The position numbers and the translations under genes are program-made. DNA of 64,000 bases from Cenococcum geophilum (taxonomy: Eukaryota): NCBI GenBank assembly GCA_050273025.1, contig CP158635.1, positions 19,902,001 through 19,966,000 of the forward strand, in the 5' to 3' direction. Of the stretch, positions 6,270 to 60,943 are shown piece by piece; within the stretch, counting starts at the first letter, position 1, and every line of letters starts with the position of its first letter. Under the pieces are notes generated by a model. It had not been told where the DNA came from, made no database searches, and saw only the letters and a program-made list of their open reading frames with translations.

Positions 6270-6504
6270 TGTAAGCTTTGCAATGTAGGAGAATTAAGTA
6301 AACGACTTAATTATAAATCTATGGAAATTAGGTGAAATATATACACAAAAGTAGAGCCCTAACAGTAGGGTCTATGACTTGATCTTTGACTCATTTGAGC
6401 TATAATACGAGGTATGCGAGATATATAAAGGTAGTGCCAATGCTGTCTTGGAGCCTTCCAGGCTATAGCCTTATATCTCGGCACAGTACCGGTAGTCGGT
6501 TACA
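6270..6504 (-). repeat. copia 5' LTR (235 bp)
   Basis: Direct repeat of 1466-1700, followed by TSD GTATT. Confidence 0.95.
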
Positions 6505-19700: not shown

Positions 19701-20753
19701 AGTATAATCTTATAGTCGTATAGTTGGTATTCTAGTAGCTTATTGGCTTCCTTTCGTAAGAATGCATCTAGGCGGTAATGATACTCTACTAGTACCTTCG
19801 TGGCAGGGTTAGTATACTTCTTTAGTGCTAAGGCCTTCTCGATATCGGCTATTGTAACAGCGAAGATTGTATACTCGGGTTTCTTGGCAAGTTGTACTAG
19901 TGGGGTAGCTCCAATTATATAGATATTTAGGGTGTTAAGCTTATTTAAATTGTCTATAGTTTCTTACGTGGCTTCCTGTTTAGCTTTAGGTTTAGTATTA
20001 GGTGCAAAGCTAGTATCAGATTTAGGTTTAGGTTTTTTAAGAATTCTTTTTATAGTAGAATACTAGTCCTTTTAGTATTTTCGTATATTAAGCTTAAGCT
20101 TCTACTTAGCTCGGGGCAGTGCAGTAGTTAAAATTGGTTTGTAGGGTTTGGTGGAATTTTTAGATTCTTAATAGATATCGGTGGAAGTCTTATATTAGTA
20201 GAATTTGGTGAAATTCCTAGGCTAGTAGAATTAGGTGGACTTCTTAGGTATAGGGTAGATTTTAGTAGATTTTTTAAATTTTAGTTCTAGGTCTAAGTAG
20301 TAAGTTATAAGGCACTTCTACTTATAGCGGGAGGTAGTAAATAGAAGCTTAAGGTTATCCTAATTGATAGTTACCTTATAAAGCTTTATTTAGGATTATC
20401 TAAAAATTACTAAGTAACCTAAGGTGGTAATAAAAAGCCTAATCAGTTCTTTATAGTTTAGGTATTAGAGTCTTAGGTATACTATATAGGTAATTTAGCC
20501 TAAGACTGTGCGTTTGCTATTAAATCCAAATACGTTAATATACTAGTTAAGGGGGGTTAGGGTAAAACTATTATCTTACGCAAAGATCTTATTAATAAAT
20601 CCTATACTACTAGCTCCTATATTAATTAGGACTTAAGTACTAGCCTATTAACTATTCTGCTAAAGACGGTAGTTAATAGTAATGCTACGGTCCTAAGAGT
20701 TAGAGTTTATAATATTTAAAGCATTTAACAAGATCCTAAGGCAGAGCTGTTCT

Positions 20754-21179
20754 TGTTACGGACGCTTTAAATATAATATTACGACTATTAGGAGAAGAGT
20801 CAGAAGAAGCTAGTTGGTTAATTTAGGCACGGTCTAGTATGGAGCTGGTAGAGCTATGTGACGAGGAATAGTAACCGAGGTCACGTGGAGTGATCTGTAT
20901 AATCTATAGGATCTATATAATCCGCGATAGAGTAAATAGAGTATACGTATATTACGTACAAGGAGGATTTTATAGGAGTATGGTTGTGTATTTAAGGACC
21001 CTTAGTCCCTACCTAGATAGTTCCTTCTTTATAGTAATTCTTAGAATATAATTAGAGTTAATCTGTTGGGCAACCACTCTACCAGTTGTTATTACTTGTC
21101 GACTATTATTACTTGCATTTCCTATACACCTAGCCCAATAACGAGCCCACCGTAGTTCTTGCTATAAGGTTCCGTTATA
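20754..21179 (+). repeat. gypsy 5' LTR (426 bp)
   Basis: Direct repeat of 28287-28712; terminal CA mutated to TA. Confidence 0.93.
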
Positions 21180-24100
21180 TAATTACTACCTAGTTACGGT
21201 ATTAATAATAGTAAGTCGGACAATATGCCACCAAAAGCAGCCACTATAACGCCATTGACGGCGGTAACTATATTAAGGTTAGGTAACGACACCAGTATAG
21301 CAGATACTAACTTATAGCAACCTATAACGGTCGGATAACTATAAGAGATAGTTAACCAGTTAACAGAAAATAATGTAACGTTGGAAAATAGGATTAACGG
21401 GATAGGCGTAGTAAAGGTTAAGTTACTATTAATTAAAAGATACTTAGGAGAGAGATCAAAGCTTAAAGAATTCCTTATATAAATGCACTTTAAGGTTACG
21501 TAAGAGGGAGCTAAGCTAGCAACACCTATAGATTAAATAGCATACGCAGGATTGTTCTTAATAGGAAGAGTACTTAAGTAGTTTAAGCCTTATTTAATAG
21601 AAATCTAGGTAAATAGAATAATAATAACGAACTAGGAGGTACGGTTTATGTTCTTAAGCTGGAATGGATTTGTTAAGCGACTTATATAAATGTTTGGAGA
21701 CCCGGAGGCAGTAACTACGGTAAAGAGAAAACTCTAAGACATTACGTAATAAACCTCAGCAATTAAGTATATAACGTAATTCTAGACGTTAGTAACGCAA
21801 GTAAAGTGGAATAATAGGGCGCTTATGGCACAGTATAAACAAGGACTTAAGGCTAAAGTCTAGGACGCGATTATCCTAATAGAAGATGCGGATACCCTAA
21901 GGGAACTAATAGATTAAGCGATAAAGATTAATAATAGGATTTACTAAAGGGAATAGGCCAAGAGAGGCTAAGATAGAGTTCTATAGTTATATAAGGTGTA
22001 AAGTACGCAATGATAAAAGCTAAGTTAAAAACTATGGTATGGCGCAGAGCTAATAGACCTAAGTAGTACTAAAGAAGCCTATAAGAGATAGAGTAAGAAC
22101 CTATAGAAACCTAGGGGATAAGGATTAAGTAATTAAAGGTTTAAGGAGTAGAGGCCGAATTAGGGATCTTAGTAGCAGAAGACATTTAGGCGGACTCTAT
22201 AGCAAGAAAAATAGTTTAAAGAAGGAGCTTGCATGAATTATAGAAAACAGGGTCATTACGTTAAAGACTGTAGAAGTGGGTAGAGTTACTATATAGTAAA
22301 AGGCACGAGACTAGCAGACGACATATACGTATAGAGGGACGACAATATGCTGTAAGGAACAAAAGAATATTTAATTAGGAGTTTTGCGTTTTGTTATAAT
22401 AACGCATGCCAAATTTATAAGGACGCTAAATATGGCGTAAGCTATTAGCTATAGGAGCCAGCACCTATAGGATATAGAGGAACTAATAAACCAGCTCGCA
22501 GATCGGATATTAAGGATGATAATTTTAATATAGGTAAAGCATTTTATAACAATAAGGCGACGAAAGTAGCTTATTAGGAGCGCGTAGACCTTAGAGATGT
22601 TATACTAGAGGTAGAGGATAATTCTATTATAGAATAGGGAACATTAGTAGGGATCGAAACCCTACTAGACACGATGTCTATCGCTTTGTAAGACGTAAGA
22701 GAAGTAGAACAGCGAACTACTTTAGCACTCGATAAAGGTAAAAGGCTAAAGGCTTAAGATTCTTATAGTGAGATAAAAGACAACTAAGACTCTTAAGACG
22801 AGATGAGGTAAGCTTAAGGACCTATAATGGACGATAACCGATAAAGTAGAGCAATGGCTTAGTTCAGCGATATACGAATAAGCTTAGGACGAAGTTTCCT
22901 TAAGGTATAAGACTCTTAAGATGAGATAAGTAAGATTTAAGACTCTTAAGACGAGACGAGAACACTAAGTAAGCCTAGTTAGACTAAGGTAGGGGCTAAG
23001 CTTAAGTTAGAAGTAAGCTTAGGATTAACGAATCTAAAGGGATAAGAATTCGGAGTACGAATTAGGACACCTATAGGTAAGAGGTAAGGAGCTTCTTTAT
23101 AGATTAGAGAATCTGCAGCATAAATAGTAATTAGACTGGGAGACAAATATATAGACTTAGAGGACTTACTAGTAGAATATAGTATTCGGATTAAAGATCG
23201 AAAAGTTAATACTAAGATTAAGAAGTATAAAGACTTTAAGGATCTAAGCATAAGGCGCAAACTAAAAGAAACTATAGAAGAATTTAGGTAAAGAATTATT
23301 GTATGGCAAGAATAGAAACTAGATAAAAGATCTAGTATATTAGGACGTATAAGGGACAGAGCGCTAGTACAAAGAATCACTAATAGGCCTAGGGTAGGCA
23401 CACTAAGAGCTAAGTGGCTTATTGAACTAGAAGATAAGGAGGATCTAGGGATTCTAACTAGGTTCGAAGAATAATACATAAAAGGCTGTTATAACGCAGT
23501 AATAAGAAGATACTTCCTTACGGACAAGCCGTATATACTCTAGCAGCTATACTAAAAGTGGTATAGGCAAAGGCATAACGATAAGTAAAAAGATTTCTAT
23601 ATATAGTTAGATGAGAGAGTTATTTAGGACCACCTAATTATAGAGAAGGCTATAAATTATATTAAAGGAGCCTTAATTATAATGTTAAAGGATCTAGAGG
23701 AGCGTTTAGAGGACTAGAGAAGCAAAAGGCGTATCTTAGTGCCTATAAATAAAGTTATAATGTTTAGATTAGTATAATAAAGGTTTAAACTTAGGAATAA
23801 AGACGAGCTAAGAGTTAACCTAAAGCACCTAGTACACCACACGTTATTATAGATTGCGTATATAGACGATATGTGCGAAATGTATAAGAATCCAAAAGAA
23901 AAGAATCGGAAATACCCTATAAGGATATACTGGATAACGGATAAGCGGTAGTATAGGAATGCTAAATATATATATAGATGGTATCTAGCAGAAGTCTAAA
24001 AGAAAGGAAGCTTAGTACTTTAACTAGAAAGATTCCTTACGGAAAAATGCTTAAACGAATAATAGTGGTGGGAATGCCTAAAGAATACGTATCTATAGTA

Positions 24101-27100
24101 TATTAAAGATAAAAAGTGAACTAGGTATTAGCTGAAAAGCGAGCTAAGTGTATAAGGATTAAGCAGCTAATAGTTAGGAAAAGTAGAGGCCTACGGGACT
24201 AGAGGGAGCCAGTAGTAGAGCCTTAGACCTTTAAAGGAATTTAAGGTTAACACCTAAATTTATAAGTTAAGTAGTAAAATTAACAGTTTAAGGCATTAAT
24301 AGATAGTGGAGAGATAAGGAACTATATCTTACTAGCAGCAGTTAAGAGAATAGGATTACCTTATAGATAAAAGGAGGAATCTTACCTATTAGTAACAATT
24401 TTAGGAGATCTAATAGCCTACAGAGGAGGGATTATTAATCTTAAAACAGGACCTATTTAGATAACTATTAAAGGAAGACGAATTGAGATGTCTTTTAATA
24501 TCCTACTATTGGGAAGGGACGAGGCAGTATTAGGGATACTTTAGTTATAGGAATATAATCTAAAGATCGATTAGATTATAGGACAGGTTAATATTAGGGA
24601 TACTCGATACCGCAAGATGTAATAATAAGCTAAGATGGTATAGTACTAAGTTGGAGCAATATATAAAGAGACTAAGTAAGGCTTAAGTTATATACTAAAA
24701 AGATACTATAAGTATGGCAAGAAACTATAGTTACCAGAAAGTAAAAAGCTGTTAGAGTATATAGCGTGGAACTATAAAATAGAGTTAGAACCAGAAATAA
24801 GTCTAAAGTTCTTTCTAATCTATAAGCTTACTGAAGAAGAGGGTAGAGTATTAAAAGAGTTTATCTAGAAAAACTTACGAAAGGGATATATTAGACCATC
24901 GCAGTTATTAGCGGGATATCCAGTACTATTTATACTAAAGAAGAATGGCAAACTAAGGCTGTATATCGACTATAGACAGTTAAATAGTATTACTAGAAAG
25001 GATAAGTATCCTTTACCCTTAATTAGCGAAATCTAAGATAGGATAGGCAATGCGTAAATCTTTATAAAGATAGATCTAAGATGGGCATACCATTAAATTA
25101 GAATTAAGGAAGGTAACGAATAAAAAGCAGCCTTTAGGTTAAAGGAAGGACTGTATAAACTATTAGTTATACAATTCGGGCTTATAAACGCACTAGTAAC
25201 GTTCTAGAAGCGTATTAACAATATATTAAGAGAATACTTAAATAAATTTATTATGGTATATCTTAACGATATTATTATCTACTTAATAACTAAGGAAGAA
25301 CACGGGGAATACGTTAAATGGGTTTTAAAGAGACTATAAGAAGAACAGATACTAGTAGTAATTAAAAAATGCGAGTTCTTTACCAGGAAGACCGATTTTA
25401 TTAGATTTATTATTAAACTAGGCCAACTTAGTATAGATCTAAAGAAGATCAAGGCTATAGTAAATTGGTAAGAACTAGAGAACGTTATATAGTTAAGATT
25501 ATTTTTAGGGTTTTATAATTACTGCAGAAGGTTTATAGCGTAATAGTTAAAGGATATTAAGCCATTTATATAACTAATAAAGAAAGAAGAACTATAGGTA
25601 TAGGGAGAGGAACAAAGAGAGCTTTTTAAGAAAATTAAAGAGTTATTTACCTAGGAGCTAGTTTTTAAGATCTATTAACTAGAACTAGAGATAGTTATAG
25701 AAATAGATGTATTAAACTATATACTAGGGGCGTGCTTTATATAAAAATATTAAAATAGATAGCACCTAGTAGCATACTATAGTCGGAAGATAACACTACT
25801 AGAGTTAAACTATAACATCTATAATAAGGAGTTATTAGGTATAGTTATAGTATTAAAGAAATAGAGAGTATTCTTATAAGGTATAAATAAACTATTTATG
25901 GTTAAGACGGATTATAAAAACCTAATAGGATTCCTAATAATAAAGGAACTTAACTAAAGATAGGTTAGATAGGCAGAGATACTTATAGAATACTATTTTA
26001 AGATTTAGTATACTAAGGGTATAGATAATACGCAGGCAGATGCTCTAAGCTATAAAGCTAAACTATAAAATAATAAAAAGCTATTAGGGGCTTTACTGCG
26101 AAAAGACACAGACGGATTGATTAGGTATAATTATCTAAAAATTATAGTAACTTAAGAGAGTAATAAACTAGAGAAAGTCTACGAGATACTAGAAAGCTTT
26201 TAGGCATAAAGAATTCTAAAAGCATAACTAGAAGATCTATAGATGGATATATATAAGAATTAAGAAGTATAGTAGAGCAATTTATAGAAGAATTCTATAG
26301 GGGATTAACTTAAGGACACAATAGAGCCATAGGCTTAGTGTTAAGACTCTAAGAGGAGTATATTATTAATGGAATCTAGAGAATAGCTAGGAGGGTTATA
26401 AAAGAATACCTAGATTGCTAAAGAAATAAACTAATAAGGTATAGGCTATATGGAGGACTATAACCTGTTAAAACACTAGAGAGACTATAGGAGGTTATAT
26501 TATAGGACTTTATTATTAAGTTACTAAAGTTAAAAAATCCTATTACTGGATAAGATTATGACGCGATTTTAGTAATAGTAGATAAGCTTATAAAGTAGGG
26601 ATACTTTATAGTATGCACAGAAGAAATCTTAGCGGAAGATATTGCTAGAATTTATATTAAAGAAGTATTTATAAGACATGGAGTATTAAGCAAGATTATA
26701 TTAGATAGGGATTTAAGATTTATAGCAGCATTCTAGGAGGTATTCTTAGCGGAGTAAGGAGTTTAAGTAGCAACTTCTACTGTATATTATCCGCAGACAG
26801 ATAGTTAAACGGAAAGATTAAATTAGACACTAAAGCAGTATCTAAAGCATTATATTAATTACGCATAGAATAATTAGGTATTGCTATTACTAGTTATACA
26901 GTTTATATATAATATAACACCTTAAGAAGGAATAGGCATATTACTATTTAAGGCAAATTATGGATATAAGCTAAGAATATCGTTGTTACTATAATAAGTA
27001 AAGAAAACGAGTAGTATAGCTAAAGAAAGAATAAAGACGTTAATAAATCTTTATATAGACCTTAAGGAATTAGTAAAGAAAGTATAAAAGAGAATAAAAA

Positions 27101-27559
27101 AGTACTATAATACTAAGAGATCTAAGGGACCAGATCTTAAGGAGGGAGATAAAGTATAGCTACTATACAAAAATTTCAAGAGTTGACAACTAAGTAAGAA
27201 GTTAGACTATATTAGACTAGGACCTTTTAAAATCACGTAAAGAATTTTACTAGTTACGTTTAAGTTAAACCTACTAGCCAAAATAAAGATCTACCCTATA
27301 TAGTACATCGCAATGCTAGAGCTAGCACACGGGAATGTTAAGCCACCGGTTTACAAAGTAGACATATATAGAGAATAAGAAGAAGACAAATAGTAAGTTT
27401 TAAAGATCGTTAGTTATAAGGACGTTAATAATAAAATATAATACAAGGTTAAGTAGATAGGCTACACTAAAACTACCTAAAAACTACTAGAAAATTTAAA
27501 GAATGCTATAGGAAAGGTACAGGAGTATTAAAAGAAATTAGGTTAGGTAGCATTAAAAA

Positions 27560-28178
27560 AAAAGGATTACTAAAGAATAAGTTACTTAAGGGGGACCTAA
27601 GAAGAGCAGTTGCCGAACTACTTAAATCTATTTCCTTCTTTATTAGAAGAGAATCCGTTTTTTTATTACTAAATTCCTATAAACCTTATTCTATAAGTTT
27701 CCACTCTTTAAAACAAACCTTCTTACGAACCTTCTTAAGATGGATTAGTTAAGCGGACGCCGCCAGACAAGACTTAAGGGCCCGTTGCTAAGTATTAGCA
27801 GCCTCCTGTTTAGTGTCCTAAAAATAGCGCAATTTAGCAAGAGTAATAGACAGTTTATTATCTAGCTGCGTAGCAATAGATTAAATATAAGACCCTAAGA
27901 TAAATTAATTAGGGAACTAGATAACTATTAAGAGTAATAGGTTGTGTATATTTAGCATTAAAGATAGAGCAAACGTTATAGGACGAACGAATATTCGCTT
28001 TAGTACACTTTAAGTAAGAGGACGGTTATTATAAAGATGGGTTCGCCAACGTAATATAAACCAGCCCCTCTTTTAAATAGTGAGAATATAGAGATAGCAT
28101 AATCTTACCAAGAGATAGTATCGCAGCGACAGTGCGAGCACGACGAGCAGTCGAGGAAGAAGAAATTGCTTTAGGTAT
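27560..28178 (-). pseudogene. Antisense accessory gene of the gypsy element: putative Zn2Cys6-like cluster plus coiled coil, one putative intron; RIP-inactivated (end approximate)
   Basis: Frame (M)PKAISSSSTARRARTVAAILSLG.IM... is conserved with 36819-37430 (+). Six regularly spaced TGY/TAY codons follow. Confidence 0.6.
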
Positions 28179-28286
28179 AATAAGCAATAATATTAACCAA
28201 ATTAATTAGACGGATATTATACCTCTAGTGAACGACTTAGAGATATTTTAAATCTTCAAGGATAAAGATAGAGAGGAGGGAGATGG

Positions 28287-28712
28287 TGTTACGGACGCTT
28301 TAAGTACAATGTTATAACTACTAGGAGAAGAGTCGGAAGAAGCTAGTTAGTTAATTTAGGCACGGTCTAGTATAGAGCCGGTAGAGCTATATAACGAGAA
28401 ATGGTAACCGAGGTCATGTAGGGTAATCTATATAATCTATAGGATCTGTGTAATCTGCGATAAAGTAGATAGAGTATACGTATATTACGTATAAGGAGGA
28501 TTTCATAGGAGTACGGTTGTGTATTTAAGGACCCTTAGTTCCTACCTAGATAGTTCCTTCTTTATAGTGATTCTTAGAATACAATTGGAGTTAATCTATT
28601 AGGCAACCACTCCACTAGTTATTATTACTTGTCGACTATTGTTACTTGCATTTCCTACACACCTAGCCTAATAACAAGCCCACCGTAGTTCTTGCTATAA
28701 GGTTCCGTTACA
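28287..28712 (+). repeat. gypsy 3' LTR (426 bp)
   Basis: Direct repeat of 20754-21179, with TG...CA ends. Confidence 0.93.
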
Positions 28713-31105: not shown

Positions 31106-33705
31106 CGCCTTTTAGGACTCGCCTATAGAGCGCCTATAAGGCGCCTGTAAGTCACCTATGGTGCTCCTACTACCTTACTTTTTAACCTTCTTAGGAACCA
31201 CTGCTGCCGTAACAAGCCTATAGACGCGCTAGTATTATAAACTTTACTCTACTGCTATAAAGTCATTAGGGGGCACCTATTACTCGCCCCCCTACCTTCT
31301 ATTACCATTTCCTTTACAACCCAGAACTAGTTTAGTATATTTTAGCTAATAAGCCACTAGGTAACCGCCTTAAGGCCTTTTTATATTAAGAGCAGTGTCT
31401 TATAGTTCTCTATGCCAGCTACTAAGAGTATTACTTCTTAGTTAGTACGTAAGGGGCATAGTAGTATTATGTGCTTTAGTGTCTGTCTTAGCCAGCCATA
31501 TTTATATCTTAGGCTACCTACTAGGACACCCACCTAGTAGAGCCAGTCTTTTAGTCCTATTACTCCTGTTCTTAAAAGTGTTACTATTATATTTTCTGCC
31601 TTTATTAGGCCTTCTTAGAGCCCTAGAGTATTTACCCCCTATAGCGTTAACCATACTACGGCTTAGGTTCTTCTTGCCTTAGTTAACCTCTATACCTTTA
31701 ACTCCCATACACCTCTCCAGCGTTGGTCCAGCTAGTATTATATTACGGTAGTTAGTTTCCTAGCATTCTTTTATACTTTACTTTAGCTCTTTTCTCTCTC
31801 TTACTATTATCCTTACTGGCCTCTTATACGTCTCCCTTCCTCCTCTATATAGGCCTGGGCCCTAAAGCAGCACCATTCTTCTTCTGCTTTCTTTACCTAT
31901 TTCTCTAATATATCTTCCCTACTTTAGGGTTATTAGTTTATTCTCCTATAAGGCGCCCTAAGGTCCCTCCATAGTTTATTTAGGCGTATCTTAATATACT
32001 TTATAACATTAGAGTTATATTCCTTTTACGCCCTTTATATTGCAGCAGCTTTAATATATAGTTATAGGGGGGGAATATTAGCTTCCTTCTTAAGCAGTGC
32101 TATAGCCGTTCGCTTATATCCGCCTATTATACTCTAAAGGCAGGCTGTTTAGACCTTTTAGAGTAGTTTAAGGAGCAATTTAGGGGGGCCTTTCTTAGAT
32201 TCTCTAATGGCCCAAATACTAAACCTATACGTTATAGTTAGCCAGAAAACTGCTGTGTATAGTAGGCGTGACCTCTAGAAGCATAGGCCCCATATAGAAT
32301 TAACGATCCTAGATAATGCGATATACTATACTTAGCCCTTATGGGCCGCTTAGGCCGCATATACGCTTTACCGGAGCTTACTATCTACCCATACTCCTAA
32401 TACTCTTAGGCCCTAAACTAGCTAACCCCTAAAGCCTTAGATATAAATTATATACTAGAGATCTACAGATTAGTTACGTTTTCTTATAAAATGGATTAGC
32501 TAATACTTCTCTAGTAAGAATTGGACTCTATGTCGTCTTGCCTATTCTATATAGGTATTATAAGCTTTCTCTAGCGTTTTGCAATTCTCTGCGGCTATTG
32601 GCCCGTATATAATTAGGTTTATATCATTAATAAAGCCTATCTCCTAGGTCGCCCCTTCCTTAAAGGAGTTAAGTAGGTTGCTTATAAAGAAAAGGAAAAG
32701 TATAGGCGAGAGGGGTAATCCTTATAGTATTCCTGTTACAACTGCAATAGGGGGGCTTTAGTATCCGCTAAAGACCAGCAATGTTTCTTTTTAGCCTATA
32801 AACCCTTAAACAAATTATATAATCCATTCTAGGAAGCCTTTTACTCTAAAAATGTATAGGAGACACTTATAGGGTATATTATCGTAAGCGCCACTAATAT
32901 CTAGGCTAAGCATTAATACTACGAAGTCCCTTTACATCGCCTATACTGATTTAATAGTAGCAGCGAGTAGCGTAAGTACTAATAGTGTTAAGCGGTTCTT
33001 TCTTGCCCCTATTTAGCTTTATAGTAGTAGGGCGTATTCCTCTACCGTGTCTGCTATATAGTCCGCTATTACCCTTTCTAAGATCTTACTAAGGGTATTC
33101 TCTAAGGCAATAGGGCGGTAGCTCCCTAGAAATAAGTAGTTTGCTTTACCTTCTTTACATAGGATAAACGTTATCATAGCTCTTCCGAGTCTTAGGTAGT
33201 AGCCTATTACAAAGTATACTCTAGCTATATCCGCAAGCCAAGGTGCTATTAGTAGTCCGCAGGTCTTTAGGGCTTCATTTAGGATCCCATCTAGTCCTAG
33301 TGCTATATTATTTAAAAGGCGGCTAATAGTTCTAGCCATTTCTTCAGTTGTTATATCACTATTAACCCTTAGGCGAGTCACCGGTGCTTCGCCTATAATA
33401 TCGCTAAGGTCTACTAAAGCTAGTTAGGGGAAAAATCTTTCTATAAGGATTTTTACCTTCTTATTATTGTTGCTTGTAGCTAGTGATTCACCTAGTCTTC
33501 ACAGGGGCGGAAGGTATGGGTCTTCTACTAGACGTCCTGCCTTTCTCTTTGCCTATTTCGCCATCTTCCAAAGACCTTTATTATAGGGGAGGCTCGGGTT
33601 AGTAGTATACTCATTTATAAACCGTCTCCAGCTATTCCTTACTTCTTTTTTCAGGGTATTCTTTAGCTAGTTTCTTATGTCTTTGTAATATCTCTTATCT
33701 TTAGG
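31106..33705 (-). mobile_element. Second copy of the Tad1-like LINE, 5'-truncated (RT plus C-terminal region), RIP-inactivated; 3' end probably extends slightly left of 31106
   Basis: Colinear with 1-1465 plus 6510-~7655. Lacks the copia insertion (single GTATT at ~32555-32559). Similarity stops at ...CTTTAGG 33705. Confidence 0.92.
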
Positions 33706-34630: not shown

Positions 34631-35598
34631 GGTGTCGGATACCAGATAGGCCCTTGTAGAGGGGCCTTAACGAGTTCTCTAGGCAGGGCCTTAACAAGTT
34701 CTTCGCGGTGGCCTTAGGGCCTTAACAAGTTTCGTATAAGGTATCTGCGACGCGTTAACCTTAACAAGTTCTTATAAAAAGAGGTTCCCTACGCCCTCGC
34801 CGCGTCCCTTTGCGATCTCAGAGCTAGTGCAAGCCCAAGGGTGTCCTGTTGTACGACTAGGACGCGTCCACGTCAACTAATAAGATGATAAGGCTAGTTT
34901 CGGGCCTGGCTACGAGCCAGGTAGTCGTACATCGGGTGGTTTTCGTATCCCAGTTTCCCTTGATAGGCCTCCCTAGGTGGTAGAGCAGGAGCCTCATGCG
35001 GAGGCAGTAAGGCTCCTGGTGTTGTTAAGGGCGATACTTTATACGGTGGTACGCGTCGCGGGCTTAACACCACAGAACCGCGCTGCATGCGCTGCGACGG
35101 CTCCCTACCATCGCCTCTGCACTTAGCCATCAAAAGGAAACGATTTCCTGATGATGTTTCCACCCGCGGCGACGTGGACGCGTACAGTAGGGCTTCGCGG
35201 GCTAAAATTTTACTTAATAAGAACAATTTCTATACTAGTCTCCCCAGAAAATTAATAGCTTTATCTTAACACTATACAATTACAGCCCCTAAGAAAAGTG
35301 TAAGTAGTAAGCCTAAAAGGAGGAGTAGGGGAGTACCTCTTTTCCCCTTAAAAAGTTAAGAAGTATTATAAGCTTAGGTACTTAACGGCATATTATTCTA
35401 CCTAGGGCCTTAATTTAGAGATTCCGTCTAGTAAAGCGCCTATAGACCCTATATATAATTATAAGAAAGCTTATAATAAATATTATAAGAATAATAAGGA
35501 TAATAAGGATAACGAGGAAGATTTCTATAGGGATAGAAATGACAGTCAAGTCTCTAGGAGAAGTAGTTAAGGTAATTATCCCAATAATTACCCCACCA

Positions 35599-35864
35599 CT
35601 CTCCCCTTACCCTACTACTCTCCCCTTACCCTACTACTCTCCCCTTACCCTACTACTCTCCCCTTACCCTACTACTCTCCCCTTACCCTACTACTCTCCC
35701 CTTACCCTACTACTCTCCCCTTACCCTACTACTCTCCCCTTACCCTACTACTCTCCCCTTACCCTACTACTCTCCCCTTACCCTACTACTCTCCCCTTAC
35801 CCTACTACTCTCCCCTTACCCTACTACTCTCCCCTTACCCTACTACTCTCCCCTTACCCTACTA
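35599..35864. repeat. Perfect 19-bp minisatellite (CTCTCCCCTTACCCTACTA) x14
   Basis: 266 bp = 14 identical units, read directly from the sequence. Confidence 0.95.
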
Positions 35865-36290
35865 CTTTCTCTTTTTCCCTAGTAGTTCTAAATATATAGT
35901 TTTAACAACTAGTAGTAAATCTAATAGTTATTAAAGACAATATAGCTAATCTAGACTTAGAAGCTAAGGGTAATAAAGCTAGTAATACTGACGACGAAGC
36001 TAATAAAGCCGATAATTAACTAACACCTTATAGATTAGGTATACGCTTCCCCTTTTAATTTATAATAGCCTTATTTAATAATTAGTAAATAACGGGAATA
36101 ACGGCAGTAGTAAGGATAATAAAGATAATAAAGAGCTACCTTTATTAGAAGCGCTAGAAGAGGAGGTACGCGCACCTACGTATAATTATACTACACCCTT
36201 AACGCTAGACGGCAATTAAACAGATAATTTAGCTAAGGGGCATTATATTAGAACTGCTCCGCAGTTTAGGCAAAAGCTTAAAATATTAAT

Positions 36291-36710
36291 TATAACGGAA
36301 CCTTGTAGTAGATACTACGGTAGGCTCGTTAATAGGCTAGGTATATAGGTATTAAAGAAAGTCAACAACGTAATAACAACTGGTGGAGTGGTTGCCTAAC
36401 AGATTAACTCCAATTGTATTCTAAGAATTACTATAAGGAAGGAACTATCTAGGTAGGGACTAAGGGTCCTTAAATACACGACTATACTCCTATAAAAGTT
36501 ATTACTCTATCTACTCTGTCTACTCTATTTGCTTTATTATAAATCTCGCAGATTACACAGATTATATAGATCACATCACGTGACCTTGCTTACTATTCCT
36601 TATTATATAGTTCCACAGGTTCTATCCTAGACCGTACCTATATTAACCAACTAGCTTCCTCTAACTCTTCTCTAAGTAGTTATAATATTATACTTAAAGC
36701 GTCCGTAACA
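36291..36710 (-). repeat. gypsy 3' LTR (420 bp)
   Basis: Direct repeat of 43895-44314; purine tract adjacent on the minus strand (36711-36728). Confidence 0.93.
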
Positions 36711-36818
36711 CCATCTTCCTCCTCTCTATTTTTGTCCTTAAAGATACCTAGTATCTCCAAGTTATTTACTAGAGGTGTAATATCCGTTTAATCAATTTGG
36801 TTAATATTGTTACTTATT

Positions 36819-37430
36819 ATACCTAAAGCTTCTTCTTCTTCTTTAACTCTTTATTATGCGCGTACAGTCTCGTCTATACTATCGCTTAGTAAGATAATGC
36901 CGTCTCTATATTCTTATTATGCAAAAGAGGGGTTAGTTTATATTACGCTAGCAAGTCCTTTATCTTAGCAACTGTCCTCTTATTTAGAGTGTACTAAAGC
37001 AAATATTTAATCGCTTTGCGATATTTATTCTATTTCTAACGCTAAATATACGCGTCCTATTACTCTTAATAGTCTTTAAGTTCCCTAAGTAATTTATTAT
37101 AGGGTCTTATATTTAATCTGCTGCTGCAAAGCTTAATAATAAACTATCCGTTACTCTAGCGGAACTTCATTATTCTTATAACGCTAAAAAGGAGGCTGCT
37201 AATACTTAATAACGTGCCCTTAATTCTCATCTTACTGCGTCCACTCAGTTAATCCGTCTTAAGAAGGTGCGTAAGAAGGTTTATTCTAAAGAGTGGAAAC
37301 TTATAAAATAAGGTTTACAGGAACTTGGTAATAAAAGAACGGATTCTCTTCTAATAGAGAAGGAAACAACTCCAAGTAGTTCGGCAATTAATCCTCTTAG
37401 GTCCCCCTTAGGTAACTTATTCTTTAGCGA
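36819..37430 (+). pseudogene. Antisense accessory gene of the gypsy element (second copy): putative Zn2Cys6-like cluster plus coiled coil; putative intron 37048-37102 (end approximate)
   Basis: Reads (M)PKASSSSLTL..ARTVSSILSL..IMPSL-Y-SY-Y-AKEGLV-Y-ITLASP.S*Q.SS-Y-.E-C-TKANI*SL-C-DI. After the putative intron a helical segment follows (...AAKL...LSVTLAELR...LIRLKKVRKK...KEWKL...GLQEL). Confidence 0.6.
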
Positions 37431-40400
37431 TTCTTCTTTATTATTGCTTCCTGACCTATTTTCTTCTAATACTCCTATACCTTTCCTATAGCGTTCTTTA
37501 GGTTTTTCAGTGGCTCCCAGGTAGTCTTATCGTAGCCTATCCACTTTACTTTATACTATATTTTATTGTTAACGTCCTTATAGCTAACGATCTTTAAAAC
37601 TTACTATTTGTCCTCTTCCTATTCTCTATACGTGTCTGCTTTATAAACTAGTGGCTTAATATTTCCGTATGCTAGCTTTAGCATTACGATATACTATATA
37701 GAGTAGATCTTTATCTTAGCTAGTAGGTTTAACTTAAATATAACCAGTGAAATTCTTTATATAATTTCAAAAGGTCCTAGTCTAACGTAGTCTAACTTCT
37801 TACTTAGTCGTCGACTCTTAAAATTTTTGTATAGTAGCCATACTTTATCTCCCTCCTTAAGATCTGGTCCCTTAGATCTCTTAGCATCATAGTACCTTTT
37901 TATTCTTTACTGTACCACCTTAGCTGTTTCCATAAGGTCTGCATAAAGATTTATTAAATTCTCCATTCTTTACTTAGCTATGCTACTTATCTTCTTTACT
38001 TAATATAGCGATAATAAGGTTCTTAGCTCATATCCGTAATTCGTCTTAAATAGTGACGTACCCATTTCTTCTTATAGTGTTGCATTATATATAAACTATA
38101 TAACTAGCAATAGTAATACCTAATTATTCTATATATGATTAATATAATACCTTAAATACTGTTCTAGTGTCTAGTTTAATCTTTCCGTTTAACCGTCTGT
38201 CTATAGATAATATGCGGTAAAAGTTACTACTTAAACCCCTTACTCTGCTAAGAATACTTCCTAGAATGCTGCTATAAATCTTAAATCTCTATCTAATATA
38301 ATTTTGCTTAGTGCTCTATATCTTATAAATACTTCTTTAATATAGATTCTAGTAACATCTCCCGCTAATATTTCTTCTGTGCATGCTATAAAGTATCCCT
38401 ACTTTATAAGCTTATCTACTATTACTAAAATCGCATCGTGATCTTATCCGGTAATAGGATCTCTTAATTTTAGCAACTTAATAATAAAGTCCCATAATAT
38501 AACCTCCTATAGTCTCTCTAGTATTTTAATAGGTTATAGCCCTCTATATAGCTTATGCCTTATTAGTTTATTCCTTTAGCAATCTAGATATTCCTTTATA
38601 ACTTGTCTTGCTAGTCCCCAAATTCCATTAATAATATATTCTTCTTAAAGTCTTAACACTAAGCCTATAGCTCTATTATGTCCTTAAGTTAGTCCTTCGT
38701 AAAATAACTTAACAAACTCCTTCGCGATAGATCTCGGCACGTACGTTACTTCTCGATTTTCGTACTGCTCTAAGTCTAGATCCTCCACCTATACTTCTTA
38801 GATCTTTTACGTCCATTCACTCTTTAGTAATTTATAGATCTTTTCTTCTCGTGTTGCTATAATCTTCGGATAATTATATTTAATTAACTTATCTGTGTCT
38901 CTCTGTAACAAAGCCCCTAATAGCTTCTTATCATTTTATAATTTAGCCTTTCTGCTTAAAGCATCTGCTCATGCATTATCTGTACCCTTAGTATACTAAA
39001 TCTTAAAATAGTATTCTATAAGCATCTCTACCCATCTAACCTATCTTCGGTTGAGTTCCTTCGTCGTTAGGAATCCTATTAGGTTCTTATAATCCGTCTT
39101 AACCATAAATAGCTTTTCTATGCCTTGTAAGAATGCTCTTCATTCCTAAAGTGCTGCAACTATATCTAACAACTCCTTATTATAGATGTTATAGTTTAGT
39201 TCTAGTAGTGTTATCTTTCAACTATAGTATGCCACTAGGTGCCATCCGTCTTTATATTTCTATAGGAAGTACGCCCCTAGTACAAAGTCTAATACATCCA
39301 TCTCAACCACTGTCTTTAACTTTAGTTAGTAGATCTTAAGGATTAGTTCCTAAGTAAACAACTCCTTAACCTCTTTAAATAACTTTTTTTACTCTTTTCC
39401 CTATATCTAAGGTTCCTCTTTCTTTATTAACCTTATAAATAGCTCGATGTTCTTTAACTATTAAGCTATAAACCTTCTACAGTAATTGCAAACCCCTAGG
39501 AATGACCTCAACTATATTACATTCTCTGGTTCTTGCCAATTCACTATAGCCTCGATCTTCTTTAGATCTATACTAAGTTGGCCTAATTTAATAATAAATC
39601 TAACAAAATCTGTCTTCCTTATAAAGAACTTGCATTTCTCAATTACTACTAGCATCTATTCTTTATATAGTCTCTTTAAGACCCATTTAACGTATTCCCT
39701 ATACTTTTCCTCACTTATTAAGTAGATAATAATATCGTTAAGGTATACTATAACAAATTCATCCAAGTATTTTCTTAATACATTGTTAATACGCTTCTAA
39801 AACGTTGCTAGTGCGTTTATAAGCCTAAATTGCATAACTAATGGCTTATATAGTCCTTCCTTTAACCTAAAGGCTGCCTTCTATTTATCGCCTTCCTTAA
39901 TCCTAATCTAATAGTACGCCTATCTTAGATCTATCTTCGTAAAGATTTGCGCATTACCTATCCTATCTTAAATTTCGCTAATTAAGGGTAAAGGATACCT
40001 ATCCTTTCTAGTGATGCTGTTTAACTGTCTATAGTTAATATATAGCCTAAGTTTTCTATTCTTCTTTGGTACGAACAGTACTGGATATCCTGCTAATAAT
40101 TATAATAGTCTAATATATCCCTTTCATAAGTTCTTCTAGATAAACTCTTTAAGCGCTCTACCTTCTTCTTTAGTAAGCTTATAGATTGGAAAGAACCTTA
40201 GACTTATTCCTAGTTCTAACTCTATCTTATAGTCCTATGCTATATACTCTAATAGCTTTTCACTTTCTAGTAACTATAACTTTTTGCCATATTTATGGTA
40301 TCTCTTTAGTATATAGGACAACCCTTTCTTAGTTTCTTTATATATCGCTCCAACCTAATACCATACTATCTTAGTTTATTATCGCATCTTACGTCGTTAT

Positions 40401-43400
40401 ATATCCCTAATATCGACCTAACCTATAACCCAATCGATCTTTAGATTATATTCCTGTAACCAAGGTATTCCTAACACTGCCTTATCATTTCCCAATAGTA
40501 ATATATCGAAAGACATCTTAATTTGTCTTCCTTTAATAGTTAACTAAATAGGTCCTGTTTTAAGATTAATAATACCTCCTCCGTAGGCTATTAGATCTCC
40601 TAAAATTATTACTAACAGGTAAAGGTGCTCCTTTTATCTATATAGTAGCCCTATCTTTTTAACTGCTGCTAGTAATATATGGTTCCTTATTACTTTACTA
40701 TCTACTAATACTTTAAACTGTTAATCTTGCTAATTAACTTATAAATTTAGGTATTGTCCTTAAATTCCTTTAAAGGTCTAAGGCTCTACCACTAGCTCCC
40801 TCTAGTCCTATAGGCCTCTACTTTTCCTAACTATTGGCTACTTAATCCTATCTATACTTAGTCCAACTTAGGCCAATACTTAGTTTGCTTCTTTTCTTTA
40901 ATATACCATAAATAGGTGTTTTCTAGACATTCCTACCATTATTATCCATCTAGGCATTCTTCCGTAAGGAATCTTCCTAGTTAAAGTATTAAGTCCCCTT
41001 ATTCTTAAACTTCTACTAGGTGCTAACCATATATATACTTAACATTTCGATATTTCGCCTCGTCCGTCATCCAATACATCCTTATTAAATACTTCCGATT
41101 TTTGTCCTTAGGTGTCTTATACATATTACACGCATTATCCACATATGCTATCCACAATAGTATATAATGCGCCTAGTGTCTTAGGTTAACTCTTGGCTCA
41201 TCTTTATCCTTAAGTTTAAACCTTTCACATGTTAATCTAAGCGTTATAACTTCATTTACAGGTACTAAGATTCGTTTTTTACTTCTCTAGCCCTCTAATT
41301 ACTTCTCTAGATCCTTTAACGTTATAATTAAGGCTCCCTTAATATAAGTTATAGCCTTTTCTATAATCGGGTGGTCTTAGACAACTTTTTCGTCCAGCTA
41401 TATATAGAAATCTTCCCACTCGTTATTATGTCTTTGCCTATACCACTTTTAGTACAGCTCCTTAAGTGTATACGGTCTATCCGTAAGAAAGTATTTTCTT
41501 ATTACTGCGTTATAACATCCTTTTATATGTCATTCCTTAAATCTAGTTAAAATCCCTAGATCCTCTTCTTATTCCAGTTTAATAAGCCACTTAGCTCTTA
41601 GTATGCCTACTCTTAGCCTATTAGTGACCTTTTATATAAATACTCTATCCCTTATACGTCCCAATATGCTAAATCTTATATCTAGTTTCTGTTCTTACCA
41701 TATAGTAATTCTTGCTTTAAATTCTGCTATAGTTTCTTTCTATTTACGTCTCGCGAGTAGATCCTTAAAGTTATCTTACTTCTTAATCTCGGTATCAACT
41801 TTTTAATCTTCAGGCTAAACACTGTGTTCCCCTAGTAAGTCCTCTAGGTCTATATATTTGTCTCCCAATCTAGTTACTATTTATATCACAGATTCTCTAA
41901 TCCATAGCGAAGTTTCTTACTTTATGCCTATGGGTGTCCTTATTTATACTCCAAATTTTTAGTTCCCTAGGATCCTTAATCCTAAGCTGGCTTCTAACTT
42001 AAGCTTTGCTCCTACCTTAGTCCAACTAGGCTTAGGTATTCTCATCTCGTCTTAAGAGTCTTAAATCTTACTCATCTCATCTTAAGAGTCTTGTGCCGTT
42101 AGGAACACTTATCCTGAGCTCATTCATATGTTCTTAAACTAAGCTACTGCCCTACTCCATCAGTTTTCGTCTATTATAGGTCCTTAGGTATACCTTATCT
42201 CATCTTAAGAATCTTAGTCGTCTTTTATCTCGTCTTAAGAATCTTAAGCCTTTAGCCTTTTGCCTTTATCAAGTAGTAAGCTAGCACTAGTAGTCGTCTA
42301 CTTGCTTAATCGTCTTTAGATATTACTCCTTCCGTCTTATAAAGCGATGGATACCATATCCAACGGTATTATAATGCCTATTACTAAACCTTACTCTATA
42401 GCGGTCTCAGTCTCTACTTCTATTGCGTTATTAAGGTTCGGATACCCCCAGTTAGTTCCTTTACTATCCTCATCACTATTAATTAATAAGTACTCTAACT
42501 CCATTATTATTATAGCTAATCTTTATCCGCACATTGCTGTAATATCTTAATCCAGCTTATAAAGTTGATCTTATTCTTTATCTAACTCTTTAATTCCTTT
42601 AAGTCCTCTTAACTCTAGCTCTTATAGCCAATAGCTTGCACCATACTTAGCGTCTTTATAAATTCAGTATATGTTGTTATAACAAAACGCAAAACTTCTA
42701 ATTAAATACTCTTTTGTTCCCCACAGTACACTATTATCCCTCTATACGTGTGTGTCACATACTATTAGTCTAATTCCCTTTACCGCATAGTAATTCTAAC
42801 CACTTCTACAGTCTCTAGCAAAATAACCCTATTTTCTACAATTTATATAAGCTCCGTCTTTAAACCATTGCTTTTACTATAGAGTCCGCTTAAACGTCTT
42901 CTACTACTAAGATCCTTAGTTTAGCCTATGCTCCTTAGTCCTATAATTACTTAATCCTTAACCTCTAGGTTTCTATAGTTTCTTACTCTATCTCTTATAG
43001 GCTTCTTTAGTACCACTTAGGTCCATTAGCTCTGCGCCATACCATAGTTTCTAACTTAGCTTTTATTACTGCGTACTCTGCGTCTTATACAACTATAGAA
43101 CTCTATCCTAACCTCTCTTAGTCTGTTCCCTTTAGAAGATCCTATTATTAATCTTAATCGCTTAATCAATTAATTCCCTTAGGGTGTCCGTATCTTCTAT
43201 CAAAATAATTACGTCCTAGACTTTAGCCTTAAGTCCCTGTTTATACTATGCCATAAGCGCCCTGTTATTCCACTTAACTTATATCGCTAACGTTTGGAAC
43301 TACGTTATATATTTAATTGCTAAGGTTCGCTGCGTAATGTCTTAGAGTTTTCTTTTTACTATAGTCGTCGCCTCCAGGTCTCTAAATATCTACGTAAGTC

Positions 43401-43894
43401 GTTCTACAAATCCATTCTAGCTTAAGAACATAAGCTATACTTCCTAGTTTATTGTCGTCATTCCGTTTACTTGTATCTCTATAAGGTAAAGCTTAAACCA
43501 TTTAAGTGCTCTTCCTAATAAGAACAATCCTATATACGCTATTTGATCTATAGGTATTGCCAGCTTTACTCCCTCTTACGCAACCTTCAAGTGCATTTAC
43601 ATAAGGAATCCTTTAAGCTTTAATCTCTCTCCTAAGAATCTTTTAATTAATGGTAACTTAACCTTTACTACTTCTATCCCGTTAATCCTTTGTTTAAGTG
43701 CCGTATTATTTTCCATTAATTAGTTAACTATTTCCTATAATTACCCTACTATTACAGGCTGTTGCGAGTTAGTGTCTGCTATACTAGTGTCGTTACCTAA
43801 TCTTAAAGTAGTTGCCGCCGTCAATAACGTTGTAGTGGCTGCTTTTAGTGGCATATTATTCGACTTCTTAAAACCGTAACTATAGTAGTAATTG

Positions 43895-44314
43895 TGTAAC
43901 AAAACCTTGTAGTAGATACTACGGTAGGCTCGTTAATAGGCTAGGTATATAGGTATTAAAGAAAGTCAACAACGTAATAATAACTGGTGGAGTAGTTGCC
44001 CAATAGATTAACTCTAATTATATTCTAAGAATTACTACAAGGAAGGAACTATCTAGGTAGGGATTAAGGGTCCTTAAATACACAACTATACTCCTATAAA
44101 AGTCGTTACTCTATCTACTCTATCTACTCTATTCGCTCTATTATAGATCTCGCAGATTACATAGATTACACAGATCACATCATGTGACCTTGCTTACCAT
44201 TCCTCGTCATATGGTTCCACGGGTTCCATCCTAAACCGTGCCTGTATTAACTAACTAGCTTCCTCCAACTCTTCTCCAAGTAGTCGTAATATTGTACTTA
44301 AAGCGTCCATAACA
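43895..44314 (-). repeat. gypsy 5' LTR (420 bp)
   Basis: Direct repeat of 36291-36710. Confidence 0.93.
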
Positions 44315-50935: not shown

Positions 50936-51403
50936 TGTCTGGTTCTAGCAGCGGTCGTGTAGCTCTGACGACGGTCGTCTAGCTCTGGCGATGGTCATCT
51001 GGCGACGGCGACGGCCGTCTAGCTCTGGCGACGGTCATCTGGCTCTGGCGACGGTCGTCTGGCGACGGCGACAGTCGTCTGGCCCTGACGACGGTCATCT
51101 GGCCCTGACGACGGTCATCTGGCTCTGGCGACGGTCGTCTAGCTCTGGCGACGGTCGTCTAGCTCTGGCGACGGTCGTCTAGCTCTGGCGACGGTCGTCT
51201 GGCGACGGCGACGGTCGTCTGGCGACGGCGACGGCCGTCTAGCTCTGGCGACAGTCGTCTGGCTCTGACGACAGTCGCCTGTCCCTGACGACAGTCGTCT
51301 GGCCCTGACGACAGTCATCTGGCTCCGGCGACGGTCGTCTGGCTCTGGCGACGGTCGTCTAGCTCTGGCGACGGTCGTCTGGTTCTGGCGACGGTCGTCT
51401 ACT
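50936..51403. repeat. 20-bp GC-rich minisatellite (CTRGCTCTGGCGACGGTCGT), ~23 imperfect units
   Basis: 20-bp periodicity is obvious at 51121-51200, with variant units CTGGCGACGGCGACGGTCGT interspersed. Confidence 0.92.
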
Positions 51404-51545: not shown

Positions 51546-51788
51546 GCAGAGCTTCGTGTAGAGACTCCGTACGCAGAGCTTCGCGTAGAGCCTCGTGCAG
51601 AGCCTCTGTACGTAGAGCTTTGTGTAGAGCTTCGTGTAGAGCTTCGTGTAGAGCTTCGTGCAGAGCCTCGTGTAGAGCCTCTATACGTAGAGCTTCGTGT
51701 AGAGCCTTGTGTAGAGCCTTATGCAAAGCTTCGTATAGAGCTTCGTGTAAAGCTTCGTGCAGAGCTTTGTGTAGAGCTTTATGCAGCT
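51546..51788. repeat. 12-bp minisatellite (AGAGCTTCGTGT), ~19 imperfect units
   Basis: Directly visible; explains the HEAL/RASC repeat ORFs in the ORF track. Confidence 0.9.
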
Positions 51789-60500: not shown

Positions 60501-60943
60501 CTTCCCGACGCGGTCAGCCATTGTCCGTAGTGGTTGCAGAGCGTCGTCGTGCGCATATGATGTGAGGCGGAGAGGGGATTCTGGATCTGAGAAGAGTCAG
60601 CGGGACTGCGCGTGCAATGAAAATTATCACCGGCGTTTTTTGAGAGGATTCTGCTCACCGTTGGAGGATCTGTCGAAGCTCTGGTGTCTTTGGGGCTAAA
60701 TAAGGGAACGCAGATTAGCTACGGCACTGGAAGGTAAATTGCAGTAGAAGAGGAAGTAGTTCCAGCTCTTCTTTCACGAGCATGAGGCAGAAATGAGTAA
60801 GATACCACCACAATGCCGGCCCACATCTCCAAGTGAATTAAGAGTAGTGTTGGAAGTTCGACTGCCCCCAGGAATGCTTGAGCAAAGTAAAATTAGGATA
60901 CCTTGAGTCCCGAGGATTGCGATCGCCTTGAGATAGGAGCCAT
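57505..60943 (-). CDS. NUP84: Nuclear pore Y-complex protein Nup84/Nup107; exons 60943-60902, 60695-60659, 60586-58490, 58426-58093, 58015-57505
   Basis: Family motifs ADRVGKEVEKFAE, LKWLE, QLDPDAPFRQ, YEMLRRG, YESAVYGLLSGD, VCRTWDDHLYA and YLPEIVLAYHS. All four introns have GT/AG, branch sites and consistent phases. Confidence 0.92.

Follow-up and report, generated by a model that had tools for sequence, protein, structure and literature searches.

The 64,000-nucleotide stretch of the Cenococcum geophilum genome analysed here (contig CP158635.1 of assembly GCA_050273025.1, positions 19,902,001 to 19,966,000 of the forward strand; hereafter the window) contains two long terminal repeat (LTR) retrotransposons of a chromodomain Ty3/gypsy family, each of which carries, beside its 3' LTR and on the strand opposite to pol, the remains of an intron-bearing gene. 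In living elements of this family the antisense gene is under purifying selection and lies wholly inside a C-terminal tail of pol that is kept open and is unconserved as protein. It is highly probable that this is a real protein-coding accessory gene. The best explanation of the data, namely an antisense accessory gene of a chromodomain Ty3/gypsy family that has been killed in the window by repeat-induced point mutation (RIP), that contains one 55-nt intron and whose product would act as a regulator, is in our assessment likely to hold.

An initial annotation made from the sequence alone had described two gypsy relatives of about 8 kb, each keeping an antisense frame, and self-BLAST, inspection of the LTR ends and the strand of the Pfam matches confirmed this description. 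The two elements lie in opposite orientation and share 82-83% identity (self-BLAST). Their features, and those of the antisense gene within them, are as follows.

20754-28712, + strand: element A, a RIP-degraded chromodomain Ty3/gypsy LTR retrotransposon (self-BLAST, LTR ends, Pfam, tblastn)
20754-21179 and 28287-28712 (3' LTR), + strand: LTRs of element A (self-BLAST, LTR ends)
~28258-28286, + strand: polypurine tract of element A, directly before the 3' LTR (LTR-end inspection)
27950-28178, - strand: antisense gene exon 1, element A (cysteine positions Y Y Y Y C Y)
27895-27949, - strand: antisense gene intron, element A, 55 nt, ATACAC..TAG
27506-27894, - strand: antisense gene exon 2, element A, with a TAG stop at 27508-27506
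36291-44314, - strand: element B, a RIP-degraded chromodomain Ty3/gypsy LTR retrotransposon (self-BLAST, LTR ends, tblastn, RIP indices)
43895-44314 and 36291-36710 (3' LTR, from which the antisense gene is directed away), - strand: LTRs of element B
36711-36818, + strand: antisense-gene leader with the polypurine-tract complement, element B (LTR edge, diversity scan)
36819-37047, + strand: antisense gene exon 1, element B, 76 codons and one base, with an ATA start derived from ATG and two stops
37048-37102, + strand: antisense gene intron, element B, 55 nt, ATACGC..TAG
37103-37491, + strand: antisense gene exon 2, element B, with the junction codon (Trp, split as T and GG), the long helix and the C-terminal motif ..LPD..SS.TP.PF

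The LTRs of each element measure about 420 bp, with ~91% identity within the pair (self-BLAST), and end in TG..CA in both elements. Element B is bordered by a perfect 5-bp target duplication (TTAAT on both sides) and element A by GTTCT and GTTTT, which differ by one C>T change. A six-frame Pfam scan of element A detected gag, reverse transcriptase (RVT_1, 1e-20), RNase H and SH3_Tf2-1 in + frames only, with the gag and SH3_Tf2-1 matches falling below their cut-offs, and the three - frames returned no family. The gag and pol of an intact relative found on a metagenome contig (L003) cover elements A and B end to end at 51-62% identity (tblastn), and in the intact elements L003, L010 and L002 gag, protease, reverse transcriptase, RNase H, integrase and a C-terminal chromodomain (Chromo, 2.7e-8) were all detected. 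By their LTRs, target duplications, polypurine tract and domain order, elements A and B are Ty3/gypsy chromoviruses. They are also RIP-mutated repeats: TpA/ApT reaches 1.54-1.61, (CpA+TpG)/(ApC+GpT) drops to 0.47-0.57 and the proportion of G+C is 0.33, against 0.75, 1.26 and 0.50, respectively, in the genic part of the window, and transitions account for 94 of the 128 differences between A and B over the two exons.

In both copies the antisense frame opens with ATA-CCT-AAA-GC at a measured distance of 109 bp inside the inner 3' LTR edge (36710 in B), in agreement with the ~110 bp first proposed, on the strand opposite to pol; it breaks after 229 nt and resumes 55 nt later in the +1 frame. Since the Pfam domains of element A occur in + frames only, the frame running downward from 28178 is antisense and beside the 3' LTR. 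For the same region, a reading of the frame as the gag of an element running in the other direction was considered and ruled out, all pol and gag domains being on the opposite strand. Exon 1 of element B encodes an N-terminal helix and a six-cysteine region that now reads Y Y Y Y C C. In both copies exactly the codons initially reported stand at the six positions (spacing x2-x6-x13-x2-x8), with TGT at the fifth position of each and TGC (B) or TAT (A) at the sixth. Exon 2 of element B ends with a TAG at 37489-37491, 61 nt beyond the end at 37430 first assigned to the gene, and contains four internal stops. Both window copies are dead: each starts with ATA, has AT at the donor site and contains 6 or 8 internal stops.

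The alignment of the two copies over the antisense-gene region extends for ~915 bp without an internal indel. RIP makes transitions and no transversions. Transversions between A and B fall 9/2/23 on antisense codon positions 1/2/3 (n=34; 5/0/11 in exon 1 and 4/2/12 in exon 2), which bears out the third-position bias noted at the outset; transitions in the exons are distributed over all codon positions.

A scan of metagenome contigs, with a 10-row alignment as query, yielded 80 loci, of which one data set contributed 73. BLASTN with L003:150-960 provided 99 copies, counting the two in the window, each of which covers more than 550 of the 811 bases of the reference. The intron measures 55 nt in 97 of these copies and 64 nt in one, the remaining copy being truncated. 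Its donor is GT in 30 copies, AT in 67 and AC in one, and its acceptor AG in 94 and AA in four, both sites being absent from the truncated copy. The start codon is ATG in 15 copies, ATA in 83 and CCT in one. Exon 1 has a length of 1 modulo 3 in all 99 copies and exon 2 a length of 2 modulo 3 in 89. Each of the six cysteine codons is exclusively TGY or TAY in 98 copies (the 99th has gaps there), as expected from the proposal that RIP had turned Cys into Tyr at all six positions. Two elements are intact, with an ATG and no stops: L003 (exons 258-498 and 554-903; intron GTGCGC...TAG) and L002 (exons 4034-4274 and 4330-4718; intron GTACGC...TAG). The initial annotation thus identified the 55-nt intron and its RIP-altered GT donor correctly, the ancestral donor being GTGCGC or GTACGC and not GTACGC only, and its expectations of a GT donor in less-mutated copies and of an intact spliced open reading frame (ORF) with six Cys in un-mutated ones were borne out. 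Integrase, SH3 and chromodomain sequences lie on the opposite strand just past the 3' end of the gene in 97 of the 99 copies, in keeping with the anticipated location of homologues antisense at gypsy 3' ends, and were not matched in the other two although their contigs had room for them. On a further contig (L010:1-7546), the sequence opens with the end of exon 2 and closes with exon 1, with intact gag and pol in between, as if a circular or tandem form of the element had been assembled through its LTR.

In the intact elements the pol frame extends far beyond the chromodomain. The L003 pol ORF (L003:29-4291, - strand) has 1420 codons, with the chromodomain at 1091-1139 followed by 281 further open codons that span the entire antisense gene, intron included, as well as the polypurine tract, and end ~125 nt inside the 3' LTR; the pol frames of L002 (3784-7512, - strand) and L010 (2-3709, - strand) have the same open tail. 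The remnant of this frame in the window is listed below; by homology, the stretches corresponding to the pol tail itself are 36596-37500 and 27500-28404.

36596-40876, - strand: remnant sense pol frame of element B, crossing the antisense gene and polypurine tract into the 3' LTR (homology to L003 pol residues 1-1419)

Because the pol frame is open through it in intact elements, the stretch containing the antisense gene is not a spacer. The placement of the gene by the 3' LTR and its antisense orientation stand, and a non-coding gap between pol and the LTR does not.

The two overlapping frames can be told apart in exon 2, where the third antisense codon position is paired with the second sense position and selection on one or the other reading therefore predicts different variable sites. 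Differences in exon 2 between L003 and L002 fall 14/15/39 on antisense positions 1/2/3, with other intact pairs alike, and transversion diversity among the 99 copies is 0.070/0.069/0.136 at the same positions, an excess reached in none of 10,000 permutations. The ratios of nonsynonymous to synonymous substitution (dN/dS; Nei-Gojobori) agree with this pattern, and are given here for the pairs L003-L002, L003-L001 and L002-L001, in that order.

Spliced antisense frame: 0.15, 0.27, 0.24
Antisense exon 1: 0.06, 0.16, 0.16
Antisense exon 2: 0.22, 0.36, 0.30
Sense frame across exon 2: 1.27, 0.82, 0.71
Sense frame directly past the gene (904-955): about 0, 0.11, 0.07

The selected protein is therefore the antisense one, and the suspected purifying selection on the spliced frame is evident (0.15-0.27). 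None of the findings that had been named as refuting the gene (retained Tyr or stops, no GT donor, dN/dS near 1) was encountered in the un-mutated relatives.

The coexistence of both frames bears on the nature of the selected product. If no antisense gene existed, and the open, conserved antisense frame were a by-product of selection on the overlapping pol tail, the pol frame should be open throughout the region, as it is in L003 and L002 (1420 aa, with a 281-residue tail), and its openness should be no accident. When antisense codons were permuted among synonymous sites, the sense frame was indeed stop-free in just 13 of 5000 cases for L003 (0.26%, P 0.003) and 4 of 5000 for L002 (0.08%, P 0.0008); these two elements are related and do not constitute independent cases. 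In the converse permutation, however, the antisense frame was stop-free in 67 (L003) and 46 (L002) of 5000 cases, so that it too is open above chance (P 0.013 and 0.009). Exon 2 is moreover most variable at sense position 2, with sense dN/dS of 0.71-1.27 against 0.22-0.36 in the antisense frame, a fixed-length GT..AG intron with a frame shift at exactly that point has no meaning for a sense frame, and proteins spanning the junction exist (see below). A mere by-product of pol is thus already contradicted by the present evidence and must be held extremely unlikely. We read the arrangement as a true sense/antisense overlap, in which the pol frame is kept open and its residues are left unconstrained; one possible reason is that an open pol tail may spare the genomic RNA a long untranslated 3' end. 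A functional product in the form of antisense RNA, serving copy-number control or feeding silencing and with coding capacity secondary, has precedent in the antisense RNAs that regulate other LTR elements. It could also appeal to the ~100 nt from the LTR edge to the antisense start (36711-36818; L003:160-257), the most conserved part of the region, with a transversion diversity among the 99 copies of 0.013, compared with 0.03-0.14 by codon position in the exons. Yet this leader also carries two features required in any case, the polypurine tract and the LTR end, and an RNA role leaves unexplained the dN/dS of 0.15-0.27, the restriction to in-frame indels and the six invariant Cys; we consider an RNA product very unlikely. 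Under the preferred reading of a protein-coding antisense gene, the conserved leader perhaps holds, together with the polypurine tract, a candidate leader or promoter of that gene.

Searches with phmmer against 1.8 billion representative sequences, using exon 2 of the window as query with its stops as X, returned 40 proteins at E<=1e-3, of which 37 are short (49-151 aa) and the three long ones, matched in several short stretches, are what we take for coil-like noise. All six Cys are present in two un-mutated proteins, P0046 (M-P-P-K-V...C-S-R-C-A-K-E-G-L-V-C...C-A-E-C-T-R-A-N-M-R-S-F-C-D) and P0047, which has 239 aa and reaches the common C-terminus ..TPVPFP. These two proteins and P0005, P0009, P0053 and P0055 span the predicted junction, reading ..S-D-A/S-E-W-S-R/Q-V.. 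with the split codon restored to Trp, P0049-P0052 and P0054 continue through the donor (..AE/AK/TK-C/Y..), and P0012, P0044, P0019 and P0033 start within the intron. Such a mixture is what would be expected of an ORF caller applied to complementary DNA (cDNA), in the case of the spanning proteins, and to genomic DNA, in the case of the others. One more protein, P0048, reads ..SDAE-CTFHV-RSAAARL.. where others have ..SDAE-WSRVQ-SAAAKL.., which could reflect an alternative splicing product or a minor rearrangement around the intron. P0047 begins with residues that correspond to the antisense translation of the polypurine tract and of the inner ~30 nt of the LTR in L010 and L003. If P0047 derives from cDNA, the antisense mRNA starts inside the 3' LTR, and the N-terminus of this protein gives a hint of such a start.

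The encoded protein comprises ~200 residues, with an N-terminal helix, a C-x2-C-x6-C-x13-C-x2-C-x8-C region, a helix of ~100 residues and a disordered tail whose motif ..LPD..SS.TP.PF is conserved across the family. An AlphaFold2 model of P0047 (49 aligned rows) places helices at 33-48 and 98-199, the latter with a predicted local distance difference test (pLDDT) of 94-98 over residues 101-190, ahead of a disordered tail; the long helix postulated after the Cys region is thus predicted by the model as well. Block means of pLDDT in the Cys region are 74-77 up to residue 60, 71 for residues 61-70 and below 50 for residues 71-90.

Gal4-type clusters have a basic stretch in their first triad and the spacing C-x2-C-x6-C-x(5-12)-C-x2-C-x(6-8)-C, and the initial annotation had likened the Cys region to them. 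Were it a true Gal4-type Zn2Cys6 member, the protein would be a dimer that binds specific DNA sequences and that had been acquired by capture of a host transcription factor. Six invariant Cys in two triads with Gal4-like C-x2-C-x6-C and C-x2-C spacings, the predicted long helix behind them and the fact that Zn_clus (PF00172) is the Pfam family touched by most members (7 of 10 proteins at E<=10, best E 0.0063) all speak for such an origin. So does, as a lead only, one of the Ascomycota clusters of ~200 aa that ESM Atlas returned as neighbours of the whole protein, which is auto-named 'Zn(2)-C6 fungal-type domain-containing protein' (0.91). All 10 proteins nevertheless remain under the curated Zn_clus cut-off of 21 bits (at best 14.9 bits, for L003 exon 1, and 13.6 for P0046), and the alignments in these two cover only model positions 18-36 or 18-37 of 39, laid onto the first Cys triad. 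The residues between Cys 2 and Cys 3 are SKEGLV or AKEGLV and not a basic stretch, and the linker of 13 lies one residue past the Zn_clus range. A profile search of all PDB sequences found no Zn2Cys6 structure, its single match being an unrelated uncharacterised protein at E 1.8, and Pfam matched no family in any of the four broken translations of the window itself. DUF3716 (PF12511) also scores higher than Zn_clus, and across the full length of its model, with 20.1 bits and E 6e-4 for L003 exon 1 over positions 3-59 of 59. Membership in the Gal4-type family is, on these grounds, unlikely. The alternative that the N-terminal domain is a divergent DUF3716, a recurrent accessory module of mobile elements, and the gene one of a wider transposon-borne DUF3716 class, draws on this full-length match and on ESM Atlas, where the first Pfam-bearing cluster for the N-terminal part is DUF3716 (28% of members, score 0.76). 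It also draws on a class II transposon of Zymoseptoria whose REP9-1 and REP9-2 carry DUF3716 (PMC8232023). The score is nonetheless under the curated cut-off of 22 bits, a match at E<=10 is obtained for just 3 of 10 members, and an Atlas score of 0.76 is within the range reached by chance, so that we regard a DUF3716 identity as a serious possibility that falls somewhat short of an even chance. Judged from sequence comparison, DUF3716 is the nearer named family, both being sub-threshold, and the likeness to a Zn2Cys6 cluster is a fair description of the Cys pattern and not of family membership.

Several observations weigh against the proposed gene and the regulator that it would encode. The Cys domain is modelled with low confidence, with a pLDDT of ~75 in the whole protein and a mean of 51.6 when folded alone; the heptad pattern of the long helix is moderate and its core Ala-rich; and a Foldseek search of the whole model against PDB gave seven matches at E<=10, none at E<=0.001 and none of them a zinc cluster. 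The 99 copies are largely the family of one genome, as 73 of the 80 loci come from a single data set, and L002 and L003 are mutually related. The derivation of the six junction-spanning proteins from spliced RNA is our inference, based on their short contigs of 921-1423 bp. At the RNA level, one raw RNA-seq run (~12% read) and three contig sets were checked over 36200-38200, and no joint at 37047/37103 was found in them, coverage being thin. A few contigs from RNA libraries in these same thin and divergent data cross the intron unspliced, and the RNA-seq run placed 64 reads on the dead copy in the window, 63 of them less than 95% alike, too thin and too unlike to count either way.

The proposed mechanism can be set out with these points in mind. 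The element would make a separate antisense mRNA, starting in or at the 3' LTR, and the intron would outlast retrotransposition because, being antisense to the genomic RNA, it would never be spliced from it. The six Cys of the encoded protein may bind zinc and its long helix may mediate self-association, and the protein could then serve as a nuclear element-encoded regulator or adaptor, with an N-terminus that binds nucleic acid and a C-terminal motif that binds a partner. The targeting or anti-silencing function also suggested at the outset is conjectural. Protein genes transcribed antisense from the 3' LTR include HBZ of human T-cell leukaemia virus type 1 and ASP of human immunodeficiency virus type 1; HBZ is a spliced bZIP protein, with a DNA-binding or dimerising helix and no Cys cluster. 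The role of the present protein might be analogous to that of HBZ, an analogy of layout alone, since HBZ and ASP belong to vertebrate retroviruses and have no homology to the present gene. The complete picture, in which a pol frame stays open for ~280 codons past the chromodomain into U3, with its residues unconstrained, while a backward, intron-bearing gene encodes a DUF3716-like protein that binds zinc and regulates the element in the manner of HBZ, is doubtful as a whole.

Other features of the window lie outside the two elements. Fragments of another gypsy family occur at 10530-11111 and 17072-19747 (- strand), with 28-34% identity to the L003 pol, and a separate repeat family, unrelated to both gypsy elements, is present at 26-1700, 6270-7655 and 31120-33705 in pieces that are 90-94% identical. 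Just outside element B, within a GC-richer island, a 19-bp unit is repeated in tandem almost without error at 35588-35866 (14.7 copies, 99% matches). Further tandem arrays at 50937-51400 and 51548-51779 (a 20-bp unit repeated 23 times and a 12/75-bp unit) lie where the AT-rich repeat block meets the genic part. In the un-mutated genic flank, two ORF pieces at 57505-60521 (- strand), matched by Pfam at 1e-123 and 2e-22, belong to a gene for the nuclear pore protein Nup84/Nup107 that an intron presumably divides.

The layout of the antisense gene has been in print since 2011. According to citing papers (PMC8365987, PMC4227169, PMC7264820, PMC5987419), an additional antisense gene, brtn, was published in that year for Boty-like gypsy elements of Botrytis cinerea; it sits in gag-pol elements with a chromodomain (BcGypsy1) and occurs also in Sclerotinia, and a Monilinia transcript matches both a truncated Pol with chromodomain and BRTN, which fits an overlap. 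Like brtn, the present gene is an extra, antisense gene at the pol/3' LTR end of a fungal chromodomain gag-pol element (97 of 99 copies), and the likeness is one of layout. The name BRTN was absent among the 6, 16 and 37 database matches obtained, none of which came from NCBI or UniRef, one of these searches having scored only those 8000 candidates that shared most words. The plant Ty3/gypsy elements Grande1, RIRE2, Retand and PvRetro13 have antisense ORFs between pol and the 3' LTR and are listed beside brtn in a review (PMC7264820). As described there, they resemble the present gene in position, orientation, presence in most family copies and unknown function; unlike them, and outside their non-chromovirus lineages, the present gene is interrupted by a spliceosomal intron and overlaps the pol frame in full. 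With respect to domains, the protein shares with Gal4-type Zn2Cys6 factors (PF00172) two C-x2-C-xn-C triads, which make up the six Cys, and a long helix behind them, and differs from these factors in its sub-threshold, half-model alignment, in the absence of a basic stretch from the first triad and in its linker of 13. The comparison with DUF3716, encoded by REP9-1 and REP9-2 of the Zymoseptoria tritici class II transposon REP9, rests on a ~60-residue fungal Cys-rich domain in mobile-element accessory proteins, for which DUF3716 is the best-scoring Pfam model and matches over its whole length; the present gene is antisense to pol, whereas REP9 (PMC8232023) is a class II element with genes not antisense to a pol. 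Among the papers that a literature search returned for zinc-cluster antisense genes of retrotransposons, none deals with a fungal element, judged by title or the start of the abstract.

The antisense accessory gene is thus of a kind already known, of which it provides a further, well-supported example. What is new is the firm evidence for its intron, its six Cys and its purifying selection, a domain whose likeness to DUF3716 is closer than that to Gal4-type clusters, and its overlap with a pol tail that remains open. LTR retrotransposons seldom carry accessory genes, the functions of such genes are unknown, and the brtn precedent has hardly been pursued in searchable papers. The family described here offers a clean case, with intact copies, a fixed 55-nt intron, six Cys, a long helix, a C-terminal motif and purifying selection, and it shows that what looks like a 'spacer' behind pol is an overlap of frames on two strands. 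For annotation, it accounts for numerous short orphan "hypothetical proteins" listed in data sets from fungi and soil, and it carries the warning that RIP converts Cys clusters into runs of Tyr.

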